Below are positions 173-22,590 of a stretch of DNA of 33,734 nt, one piece after another. This DNA is from Eledone cirrhosa (Eukaryota), in the NCBI GenBank assembly GCA_964016885.1, contig CAXHJY010001278.1, positions 1 to 33,734 on the forward strand, read 5' to 3'. The first letter of the stretch is position 1, and each line of letters starts with the position of its first letter. The position numbers were made by a program, and so were the translations under genes. Under the pieces are notes generated by a model. It did no database searches. It was not told where the DNA came from and saw only the letters and a program-made list of their open reading frames with translations.

Positions 173-273
173 TATACATATATATGTATATATATATATA
201 TATATATATATATGTGTATATAATATATAAAGTTAAATAAAAGTCAAATGATTAAAATTTAGCTTCGTTTATT

Positions 274-328
274 ACTGCTATATATATTTCAGTGACAGCC
301 ATCTTTGGCTGTGACCTCTTCAGGCAGT
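274..328 (-). ncRNA. Type I hammerhead ribozyme, inverted copy
   Basis: Reverse complement of 487-541 with intact core and fully paired acagcca/tggctgt distal stem II. Confidence 0.85.
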
Positions 329-486
329 TTGAATTAGTATGGTTTAGACAAGTACATATGTTGTTTAGGTGTATGATATTGTCAATACTCTGATATACAA
401 CCCAACAAGGAACTGGGCATATCAGAGTATTGACAATATCATACACCTAAACAACATATGTACTTGTCTATACCATACTAATTCAA

Positions 487-541
487 ACTGCCTGAAGAGG
501 TCACAGTCAAAGATGGCTGTCACTGAAATATATATAGCAGT
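487..541 (+). ncRNA. Type I hammerhead ribozyme (family 1 pLTR)
   Basis: Stem I actgc(487-491)/gcagt(537-541); core CTGAAGA 492-498; stem II ggtcacagtca-aaga-tggctgtcact; GAAA 525-528; palindromic stem III ATATATAT; predicted cleavage after A536. Confidence 0.85.
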
Positions 542-690
542 AATAAACGAAGCTAAATTTTAATCATTTGACTTTTATTTAACTTTATTTTACACTACTC
601 CGGAGTAACCAAACCAACCTGCGCACTTCGTTGAGTGCTCCAGCCTGCATACTGAGGTGTTGGTATACAACCAACATAAACTCAAAATCT

Positions 691-18183: not shown

Positions 18184-19382
18184 ATATATATATATACATA
18201 TATATATACATATATATATATATATACATATATATATATATATATATATATATACATATATATATATATATATATATATATATATATATATACATATATA
18301 TATATATATATATATATATATATATATAAAATATTAAAAGAATAATGAATAAAACAATGAAACAGTTCCTTATATTAAACAAAAAAATATATATATACAT
18401 ATATATATATATATATATATACATATATATATATATATATATATATATATACATATATATATATATATATATATATACATATATATATATATATATACAT
18501 ATATATATATATATATATATATACATATATATATATATATATATACATATATATATATATACATATATATACATATATATATACATATATATATATATAT
18601 ACATATATATACATATATATAGACATATAAATATATACATATATATATATACATATATATATATATATATATACATATATATATATATATATACATATAT
18701 ATATATATATACATATATATATACATATATATATATATATACATATATATATATATATATACATATATATATATATATACATATATATATATATATACAT
18801 ATATATATATATACACATATATACATATACATATATATATATATATACATATATATATATATATATACATATATATATATATATATATATATACATATAT
18901 ATATATATATACATATATATATACATATATATATATATACATATATATATATATATATATATACATATATATATATATATATACATATATATATATATAT
19001 ATATATATACATATATATATATATATATACATATATATATATATATATACATATATATATATACATATATATATATATATATACATATATATATATACAT
19101 ATATATATATATATATACATATATATATATATATATACATATATATATACACATATATATATATATACATATATATATATATATATATATACATATATAT
19201 ATACACATATATATATATATACATATATATATATATATATATATATATACATATATATATACATATATATATATACATATATATATACACATATATATAT
19301 ATATATACATATATATATATACACATATATATATACACATATATATATATATACATATATATATACATATATATATACATAT
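18184..19382. repeat. (TA)n/(CATA)n microsatellite with a ~60-bp non-repetitive island at ~18327-18388
   Basis: Direct reading; C-interrupted on +. Confidence 0.98.
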
Positions 19383-21925
19383 CAGCCTCTGGCAGGGAAG
19401 CAGTGGAATCACTTCTTGACTTCATGGATGATTTCTTCCTATCCCAACTGGTGCTCGAACCAACGAGGTGCCACAAAAACGTCCTAGACTTAATTTTCAG
19501 CAATCACACTGACAATATCCACAATATTGCAGTGGAGAAAACTCTACTCTCTGATCATGACATGGTTCTCTGTGATCTGAGATTCCACCGTCCAATATAC
19601 AAACCCAATGTCATCTCTCCTGTCCATCCGTTTGACGCTATGGATTTCCACAATGCAAACTGGGAAGCGATCAGTCATGATCTTGCACATGTCGACTGGT
19701 CCTTCACGCACACTCATACACCCACTAACATCAAAAAGTCCTGGCAGACATTTGTGGACACTGTTACAAACATATGTGCAAAACACACCCCATTAAGAAC
19801 TATAAACAAATCTAAGAGCAGAATCCCTAGAAATAGAAAAACGCTCATCAGAAAAATTAAGAGAACGAACAAAAAAATCAACAAGCTGAAATACTGTCAG
19901 CAGCAACACATCAACTTGACTGCCATTTCATCACTAGAGATTAAAAAACATAACCTCCAAAACAACATAATGTCCCTCATCAACAATCAGAGAAGAGCTG
20001 AAGAGGCCTGGGCCATTGAGAAGATCAAACTCAATCCCAAAGTGTTCTTTTCATTTGCAAAAAAACACAAAATCACTGGCTCTACTGTTGGCCCTCTAAT
20101 TGATGAAAATGGCACTCTTCAAGACAATGCTAAAACCATGGGTGAGATACTGCAGAAACAATACTGCTCTGTTTTCAGCAATCCTGATATGGCCGATCTG
20201 GGCTGTATCGGCGATGTTACTCCCCATTACACCTTATCGGACATAACGTTTGGCGCCCCTGATGTCTTAGCGGCAATAAAGGAAATCAAGCATAATTCAG
20301 CAGTAGGTCCCGATAGGTTCCCTGCTTGTGTCTTGAAGGCGTGTCAACACCAACTTGCATCTCCTCTTGCCAATCTGTGGCGGAACTCACTGGATGCTGG
20401 ATATGTGCCAGAAAACCTTCTATCCCAGTCTGTTGTCCCAGTTTTCAAAAAGGGAAACAAATCCCTTGCCGTGAATTACCGTCCAATCTCACTCACCTCT
20501 CATATCATTAAGGTATTTGAGAGAGTGGTGAGATCGCGAATGACCCACTTCCTTGAGAGTAACAATATGCTGAACTCCAACCAGCATGGATTCCGTAATG
20601 GAAGGGATTGCCTGACGCAGCTACTGCATCACTTTGATGACATTTTGAGAGCCTTGGGAGAGGGTTCCAACACTGATGTTATCTACCTTGATTTCAGCAA
20701 GGCCTTTGACAGGGTTGATCATAACATTCTACTGAGAAAGCTGTCCAATATTGGTGTCACTAGAAAGCTGCTGCAGTGGATCAAGAGCTTCCTGTCAAAT
20801 AGAACCCAACATGTTGTAGTTGAAGGAGTCAAATCCAGCCCAGCCAAAGTCAGTAGTGGGGTCCCACAAGGCACTGTGTTGGGCCCACTTCTCTTCATCA
20901 TCTATATTAATGACATCACTGACATCATCAAACACAGCAACATTAAAATTTTCGCTGATGATTCCAAGCTCCAAAAGGTCATCAATGGCGTGGATGACCG
21001 GATAAGCCTTCAGTCAGACCTACTGGCTGTTACCCAATGGGCGGAAAAGAACAACATGTTACTGAACGAAGACAAATTCGAACTGATCCACTTTGGAAAA
21101 GAGGATGCTCTGAAACTCCCGTACTCCCTTCCCTCCGGGGAAACTCTCGTGGCATCTAACAACATCAGAGACTTGGGAGTAACCGTGGACAGCAACATAA
21201 GCTGGGCCACGCATATAAGCAGCAAAGTTGACATGGCCCGCAGAATGTGTTCCTGGATCCTCAGAACCTTCCAGTCGAGAGATTCCCACACCATTATCCT
21301 TCTCTTCTCTACTTTTGCCCGACCACACCTTGAATACTGTTGTCCACTGTGGTCTCCCCACACGAAACAAAGTATCATGAAACTTGAAGCTTCTCAAAGG
21401 GCAATCACGAAAAAGATAGATGGCATGTCAGACCTTGACTACTGGGGTCGACTAGAAAACCTGAAACTTTACTCACTCCAACGTCGCCGTGAGCGTTATA
21501 TTATCTGCATGATGTGGAAAATGTTCCATCAACACTGCCCAAATGATGTTGGCATCGCCTTCAAGATACACCCAAGGCTTGGGCCCCGTGCTATCCGTCC
21601 CATTCAAAAATCTAAATCGCAACACATAACAACAATACGGCACAATTATTTCACCTCAATCGGCCCTGCTCTCTTCAACATCACACCAGGACACGTCAAA
21701 ACAGAAACTGACCACACAAAATTCAAGAAGTCTTTGGACAAATTCCTCCAAGTAATCCCGGACAAACCACCCACACCCGGATATGTCTCCGCAAACAGTA
21801 ATTCTCTTCTCGAATGGGCCATGGTGCCCAAATCCTGAATTGAAAGACTTCGCCAGGTGGTGCTATTAAGTTAGACATGGCCTGGGCCAATACTGGCCAA
21901 AACATTTCAAAGTTATTCAAAGTTA
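19383..21925 (+). mobile_element. 5'-truncated CR1-like LINE, copy 1
   Basis: ORF 19403-21838; short 3' UTR with ggcca-atac-tggcc hairpin and (TTCAAAGTTA)x2 tail. Confidence 0.92.
19403..21838 (+). CDS. CR1-like ORF2 (end of APE endonuclease + reverse transcriptase), N-terminally truncated
   Basis: [91 protein letters not shown]. Confidence 0.92.
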
Positions 21926-21989
21926 CATATATATATATATACATATATATATATATATACATATATATATATACATATATATATATATA

Positions 21990-22590
21990 GTTTTGCGAGG
22001 TTTTTTATATGAAATCGTGTGTCGAAACAAATATTGTTATACTTGGGGAGGGTCATATTTGTGTAATATTGCCAGAATTAATAACAGAACACACTCACTG
22101 TTTGGTTGGTTTTCGCTTCTCACTTCTGTGTCTTTTATATCGGTAATCTAACTTACTCGGTCCTCAATGTTGCCATAAACATACACTAGTCACCCATCAC
22201 ACAGCAAACAAAATACTATACACACACGCAAACGCATGCGCAAAGAAGACAAAATAAAATAATCAAACAAGCAAATAAATAAATAAATATATAGACAGAC
22301 TGAATAAAAATGGCGTAGACATACAATACAACAGGAGGAAAAGATAGCACCACTGAAAGATTTATGCAACGAAAGATTTATGATAAACTATATATATGTG
22401 TTTGTGTCTATATTGTATCTGTATTATTTTTGACCGTCGTTCAGTCAATGGCAACATTGAGGACCGAGTAAGTTAGATTACCGATATAAAAGACACAGCG
22501 AGAAGCGAAAACCAACCAAACAGTGAGTGTGTTCTGTTATTAATTCTGGCAATATTACACAAATATGACCCTCCCCAAGTATAACAATAT
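21990..22590. mobile_element. Non-coding PLE pLTR unit (relative of the 11874-13816 family) with ~145-bp inverted arms
   Basis: 22031-22176 is the reverse complement of 22448-22590; terminus atgaccctcccc-aagtataacaatat and tail tttcgacacacgatttca (minus, 21990-22030) match 27506-27572. Confidence 0.8.

Follow-up and report, generated by a model that had tools for sequence, protein, structure and literature searches.

Head-to-head insertions of Penelope-like elements in an Eledone cirrhosa contig and their probable origin by twin priming at a preset second site

The window analysed here is a stretch of 33,734 nt from Eledone cirrhosa (contig CAXHJY010001278.1 of assembly GCA_964016885.1, positions 1 to 33,734). 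It is animal DNA, consisting of long (TA)n and (TATG)n tracts with retroelements in between, and it contains four insertions of Penelope-like elements (PLEs), each built of two arms in opposite orientation. Such PLE pairs probably arise by twin priming, with the second priming site programmed by the element. As far as can be read from sequence, the pairs have head-to-head arms, two end zones, a tail confined to one side, arms neither of which is contained in the other, and inner joints with short overlaps, palindromes or inserts. A single target duplication round the pair was read in the sample used for the pairing test, namely host DNA contaminating the public bin G004, which comes from a different animal. 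The head-to-head shape is already known, and our analysis supports the strict pairing rule and its twin-priming reading as a step beyond the literature consulted.

Paired insertions in the window

A first-pass annotation of the window had described four insertions made of a tail-bearing arm and an inverted arm, and self-BLAST together with a print of the junctions located all four at 227-690 (I1), 9954-11858 (I2), 11874-13816 (I3) and 21990-22590 (I4), with the end motifs as described. In each of them the partner of the tail arm ends at an AT-ending site adjoining (TA)n. The arms and three further PLE copies of the window are as follows.

227-396, minus strand: I1 inverted arm; family-A pseudo-long terminal repeat (pLTR) without the tail, abutting (TA)n with its outer end ..AACTTTAT; hammerhead-like core at 323
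397-690, plus strand: I1 tail arm; pLTR at 397-588, hammerhead-like core at 492 with a predicted cut after 536, 102-nt tail, no open reading frame (ORF)
9954-10121, minus strand: I2 inverted arm; family-B pLTR without the tail, inner end 9 nt upstream of the hammerhead core
10122-11858, plus strand: I2 tail arm; broken ORF end with GIY-YIG at 10706-10846 (Hydra-like motifs), pLTR to 11715 (core at 11555), 143-nt tail
11874-13754, minus strand: I3 inverted arm; 5'-truncated, frameshifted reverse transcriptase (RT) plus GIY-YIG (CCHH type) and family-C pLTR, whose end at (TA)n reads ..AACAATAT
13755-13816, plus strand: I3 tail arm; begins 4 nt before the boundary (ATAT before it, CGG after it), 58-nt tail, blunt joint to the ORF arm; the arms do not overlap, as in classical twin priming
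21990-22447, minus strand: I4 tail arm; ORF-less family-D copy with a 41-nt tail, its 3' end related to that of family C
22448-22590, plus strand: I4 inverted arm; 143 nt, ends ..AACAATAT at (TA)n
27284-27589, plus strand: simple family-C copy; 5'-truncated, with pLTR, hammerhead-like core at 27333 and tail but lacking an inverted arm; it serves to locate the C boundary
28455-32849, minus strand: family-E PLE arm; RT plus GIY-YIG frame of 770 aa at 29959-32271, own hammerhead-like motif near 28600-28629
32850-33045, plus strand: tail-less family-A pLTR; head-to-head with the E arm, extending 4 nt beyond the I1 boundary, same start base as the I1 tail arm

Self-BLAST identified 227-396 as the reverse complement of 419-588, so that I1 is a hairpin with a 22-nt loop, and in I2 the segment 9954-10121 mirrors 11546-11715. 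The tail arm of I3, which is 95% like 27528-27589, adjoins the (CAT)n end of a long interspersed nuclear element (LINE) copy and not (TA)n. The four insertions had been assigned to different families; the families of I3 and I4 are related (85.7% over 70 nt), leaving three unrelated pLTR types. The inverted arm of I4 measures 143 nt, below the minimum of about 165 nt given in the annotation. In three insertions the two arms differ from one another in 2/170, 4/170 and 5/146 columns (1-3%), and so are not duplicated reads.

In any single insertion the boundary is in part set by the stop of the inverted arm itself. As independent checks, I3 and I4 stop at a homologous base, and the second family-A copy stops 4 nt from the position used in I1, with a rough joint chance of 0.002; a likeness between the A and B boundaries seen by eye was not significant (p 0.15). 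Four sequence runs carrying the species label of the window were aligned to 10122-13816, leaving out (TA)n at 11848-11888: X1 (19,075 contigs), X15 (219,325 raw reads), X5 (238) and X6 (44 contigs). The C pLTR natively runs on into the tail, as seen in 482 X15 reads over three joints to 13755, and the ORF natively passes 13754. These continuations indicate that the inner joint of I3 is blunt, with the tail arm starting 4 nt before the boundary.

The family-A copies starting at 397 and 32850 share the same first base and are 99.5% identical, which suggests the defined 5' end of a young, short, ORF-less element with a predicted hammerhead. At 28455-33045, the Neptune-like family-E arm is joined head-to-head to the tail-less pLTR of the unrelated family A; this joint could be a chimera of two RNAs or a neighbouring insertion, and a screen of 26 single arms in G004 revealed no head-to-head joint between families. 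Within (TA)n, an island of 57 nt at 18325-18390, minus strand, is weakly like the family-E 3' region (p 0.005 in shuffles) and is possibly a tiny PLE end.

End zones, pairing and arm structure in G004

PLE loci were retrieved from host DNA in public bins by alignment of relatives of family E, which numbered 777 at E<=1e-30 among 8000 scored. Most of the 120 related loci are single short contigs or head-to-tail arrays and were left out, and G004 was the only one of five bins used. From this bin (12 Mb, 142 PLE matches), about 0.81 Mb on 110 contigs plus 16 later regions were taken, all picked by PLE matches, and each DNA search scored the best 40 of 78-96 candidates. The targets in G004 are not microsatellites, so that junctions can be read there, while target duplications in the window are unreadable inside (TA)n. 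Three families, X, Y and Z, contributed pairs. Family X is a Neptune-type RT-endonuclease (EN) element. Family Z consists of tandem units of 299 nt that lack an ORF and carry a tRNA-Arg(tct) gene and X-like motifs (G004:C740:7043-8593, locus L260, and about 35 other loci); from its PLE insertion geometry and 13-bp duplications, it looks like a PLE-mobilised element of the short interspersed nuclear element (SINE) type.

Arm ends fall into two zones and are paired asymmetrically. In family X, 57 of 62 arm ends lie in two zones (31 at -7..0 and 26 at -58..-44), the other five being elsewhere, and 17 of 22 head-to-head pairs combine a tail end with a boundary end, none combining two tail ends. 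The same tail-plus-boundary combination was found in 20 of 21 pairs of family Z and in both pairs of family Y, whose boundaries are 8 nt apart. Over the three families, 39 of 45 scoreable pairs are thus of this type and 0/45 are tail plus tail. Since the first queries favoured tail-bearing matches, the conditional null is the fair one, and under it the chance for the 37 pairs counted at that stage is (2/3)^37 = 3e-7; tail-free queries added two asymmetric X pairs and no new boundary-plus-boundary pair. The zones are about 7 nt wide in X and 13-20 nt in Z, and the two end positions in Z are weakly coupled (Spearman 0.58, p 0.016, n 17).

These data bear on several details of the first-pass annotation. 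The inverted arms had been said to end exactly at the boundary, at an AT-ending site; the ends occupy zones of 5-20 nt, and at complex targets they read ATTAT, ATC, ATCT, ATCTT, CATT or CAC, so that the AT ending reflects the (TA)n target. The expectation of two outer-end peaks with random inner breakpoints and microhomology held in G004 for the two end zones; the inner ends of X are clustered and only those of Z are scattered, and microhomology at the boundary is modest. Nor does one rule account for all copies, because simple copies that lack an inverted arm and were primed at one or the other site are frequent (in X about 12 with and 7 without a tail, in Z 2 with and 11 without), and the simple copy at 27284-27589 had been passed over.

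By eye, a motif ACGC(A/G)GCAC(A/C)ACA common to X and Z was noticed between the end zones and is a candidate protein-binding site.

In 32 of the 38 pairs searched, both arms lie within a single target duplication, with a mode of 13 bp: 14 of 17 in X (10-17 bp; the others are C283, lying in a microsatellite, C10 with 7 bp, and C645 with none) and 18 of 21 in Z (12-18 bp). This stands against side-by-side independent insertions, later recombination or assembly artefacts as the source of the pairs, an explanation that we regard as very improbable. In its favour, insertions in the window are concentrated at (TA)n tracts, the two arms of the E/A pair belong to unrelated families and the flanks of pair X-C15 are mirrored. 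Against an artefact, the arms carry private differences, and the raw reads contain other opposite-strand joints of family C, scattered at 11937/12266, 11997/12913 and 12244/12573 (three of the 15 joints listed out of 280). This explanation is largely refuted. Three loci (L134, L138 and L166), which are symmetric inverted repeats with duplications, were excluded as likely DNA transposons by their appearance.

In 15 of 40 pairs (6/17 in X, 8/21 in Z and 1/2 in Y), as well as in I3 of the window, the inverted arm extends beyond the 5' limit of the tail arm by more than 10 nt; an extreme case is X-C110, with a 28-nt tail arm and a 1.37-kb inverted arm. These pairs speak against self-priming or fold-back, in which a palindrome would let the first cDNA, or an antisense template, fold over and act as its own template (PMC3846280): the inverted arm would then have to be a subset of its partner, and no such pair is predicted. 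In Z, nested and non-nested pairs are equally frequent (8/21 each), the outcome expected of two independent cDNAs. Joints that are palindromic and have equal inner ends, as in X-C85, C227, C491, C539 and C10, and the hairpin form of I1 do resemble products of fold-back, but two cDNAs ending at one site would likewise anneal only at a palindrome. Fold-back is thus refuted as a general rule by the non-nested pairs and has, in our estimate, a low probability overall, although it may account for the palindromic subset.

Among 35 inner joints, 16 have an overlap of at least 2 nt, 15 carry inserts of 1-25 nt, several of which are like nearby element sequence, and four are blunt. In X, 26 of 56 inner ends fall at -147..-171, a span of 25 nt that marks the hammerhead stem's 5' edge, vs one in -172..-300, whereas those of Z are scattered. 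Clearly non-overlapping arms occur only in I3 and X-C110; X-C119 has an overlap of about 20 nt, and in most others the overlap is between 60 nt and 1.1 kb. Subfamily variants are shared by partner arms more often than by random pairs (39 vs 12.8+-3.8), which fits either one RNA or two.

The inner (5') ends of X clustered at -147..-171 mark the base of hammerhead stem I and often form perfect palindromic joints; many single copies start there without a target duplication.

Twin priming and its alternatives

The strict asymmetry of the pairs would also follow directly from priming at the tail end alone, with the inverted arm made by a template jump to a different strand or copy and the GIY-YIG nuclease cutting the tail-less end at the boundary before ligation ('EN-mediated resolution', PMC8557442). 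We consider this unlikely, though less so than fold-back. It accords with the requirement for the tail in EN recognition in D. virilis, as recounted in PMC11167929, and with the weak boundary microhomology in Z. However, boundary ends are also found as simple tail-less copies with their own duplication (X-C69 and Z-C409), like ordinary priming at that site, and RT starts at a boundary-type site in vitro (PMC11167929). Boundary microhomology in X is, moreover, above the null (1.64 vs 0.71 expected). Microhomology at the tail in Z, a point in favour of twin priming, is 1.82 vs 0.68+-0.24. These values were scored against a two-sided ambiguity null, since one-sided and target-swap nulls (p about 0.0002-0.008) overstate the effect.

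Under the twin-priming reading, an element protein would nick both target strands about 13 nt apart, freeing two 3' ends. One of these would prime cDNA at the tail end and the other in a preset zone 35-145 bases upstream, the two start sites being used as a pair and asymmetrically on one target. Pairing of 1-3 nt may select the exact base within each zone, and such short pairing with the target end would give AT ends at (TA)n targets. The 3' ends of the two cDNAs could then be joined head-to-head by a microhomology-type repair. Overlapping arms may result from strand displacement on one RNA, from a second RNA or from a tandem unit, and failure of one end to prime would leave a simple truncated copy. 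The annotation had already proposed that both target ends prime, one of them at a programmed upstream site, and this part agrees with the two zones of X, the pair counts and the single duplication. Its placement of the tail start at the RNA 3' end does not: the tandem template of Z continues beyond the tail end, so this site does not have to coincide with the RNA 3' end, and both starts are internal in PMC11167929.

Several observations weigh against this reading. Six of the 45 pairs are misfits: X-C15 and X-C205 are boundary plus boundary-like (the flanks of C15 being mirrored too), X-C475, X-C555 and X-C667 each have one arm ending elsewhere, and both ends of Z-C187 (269/247) are displaced upstream. 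Z-C34, which like Z-C586 runs off its contig, could be tail plus tail. The pairing statistics come from an animal other than that of the window. The arms usually overlap by at least 100 nt, unlike classical single-RNA twin priming, and a clear adjoining duplication was seen in only four of 26 single arms examined, two tailed and two tail-less. Boundary microhomology in Z (1.29 vs 0.85+-0.27) is not significant, and the tail value in X (2.29) is partly circular because the template extension was taken from flanks. The depth of the B pLTR end exceeds that of its tail 3-4x (140k vs 33k in X1, 563 vs 187 in X15); depth is not copy number, and this excess suggests more tail-less ends than 1:1 pairing predicts. 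Finally, in the available part of PMC11167929 the start site of the Poseidon element PAc is alike on both strands, initiation proceeds without homology, and both ends of one target were not followed.

A stronger version, in which twin priming is the programmed default integration route of EN-positive (EN+) PLEs, is possible but rather doubtful. An RT-EN dimer would clamp one RNA at the tail (the footprint), with its two active sites a fixed distance apart; the downstream RT would displace the upstream cDNA, and both insert strands would be begun from RNA. Hints in this direction are the lack of tail-plus-tail pairs (0/45), the end coupling in Z, the double shift of Z-C187, the I3 tail arm stopping at the second site and the motif shared by X and Z.

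The canonical unit of EN+ PLEs, with a 5'-truncated copy, an adjacent inverted copy, an often one-sided tail and a hammerhead in the pLTR, has been described (PMC8557442, PMC3846280, PMC2377424 and PMC8969392), and the window contains the same combination of an optional 3' tail and an adjacent inverted 5'-truncated copy. These papers also report the (TA)n preference of Neptune, Hydra and Naiad and 8-10 bp duplications in Adineta. They describe the shape and propose self-priming or resolution by EN; their available portions contain no pairing counts, nesting test or twin-priming model, and give tails of 30-40 bp, compared with 41-143 nt here. For PAc in vitro, cutting and extension of both strands, two internal RT start sites bounding the tail, AT-rich targets and a predicted dimer were reported (PMC11167929). 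That work, which the first-pass annotation did not cite, anticipates much of the annotation's idea; in the portion available, the two sites are not linked on one target and inverted arms are given without a model.

Twin priming of L1 resembles the process proposed here in that both nicks prime, the 5' part is inverted, one target duplication is formed and the cDNA ends are joined by microcomplementarity (bioRxiv 10.1101/2024.08.27.596794). In L1, however, the first primer lies on poly(A), the second site is spurious and varies in position, and the arms seldom overlap and then only briefly (17%, median 22 bp), whereas PLE pairs have a preset second zone, usually long overlaps and no poly(A); bioRxiv 10.1101/2024.12.14.628481 offers no further specific point. 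Thus, PLE pairs share with L1 the inversion inside a single target duplication (in G004) and arms neither of which need contain the other (15/40 and I3); a scattered second site with a poly(A) first primer and mostly non-overlapping arms were not found. Non-LTR (long terminal repeat) retrozymes, which are non-autonomous PLE derivatives, are also short tandem ORF-less units related to pLTRs and are relevant to families A, D and Z (bioRxiv 10.64898/2026.07.22.740005). The main text of that paper does not use the words tail, tRNA or TPRT (target-primed reverse transcription), whereas Z carries a tRNA-Arg gene.

No published statement of a paired two-site model for PLEs was found in the literature searched, which did not cover older closed papers, and priority is uncertain. 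The formation of tandem and inverted PLE structures is named as an open question in PMC8557442. A paired two-site rule unites three published facts, namely the inverted copy, the one-sided tail and the two start sites in vitro, and is testable in the existing PAc assay. If true, PLEs would be retroelements in which priming of both target ends on RNA is routine, and the rule would guide the annotation of PLE ends and of PLE-dependent non-autonomous elements.

Domains, predicted ribozymes and neighbouring elements

Pfam domains RVT_1 and GIY-YIG were identified in I3 and E and GIY-YIG in I2, the RVT_1 scores being under the curated cut-off; I1 and I4 contain no ORF. Based on motifs read by eye against PMC8557442, I3 and E are candidate Neptune elements (CCHH) and I2 is a candidate Hydra element (CCHH absent, CxxC near the C-terminus). 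Our own descriptor detected six hammerhead-like cores, all sense-strand in the pLTRs of families A, B, C and E, where 20 shuffles gave 0-2; these predicted ribozymes set the sense strand for the four families. The descriptor gave no core in I3 or I4, Rfam gave no match over 9960-13820, and the 150 of 356 rows listed for the whole window contained only microsatellite-driven miRNA noise. A family-X query gave 0 matches in the other four bins, the C/D boundary pattern gave 0 matches in metagenome contigs, and no PLE relatives were found in viral contigs.

Two LINE copies at 19380-21913 and 23132-25663 are 99.6% identical and have similar (TA)n blocks upstream, and I4 follows the first copy alone; the pair is either a tandem duplication or an assembly duplication. 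Copies of a LINE family whose RT frame of 832 aa carries a PHD-like finger and whose 3' ends are (GAT)n are present at 15280-17778, 8737-9588, 13815-14975 and 26511-26657, one of them right at the I3 tail. On the minus strand at 6536-7614, the 3' fragment of another LINE (zf-RVT domain) lies between (TA)n tracts.

Among loci L050-L073 and bins G001-G005, one metagenome assembly contains long head-to-tail arrays of near-identical PLE units of about 4 kb, and several bacterial bins are rich in animal-like DNA. Some PLE proteins are labelled as proteins of bacterial symbionts.

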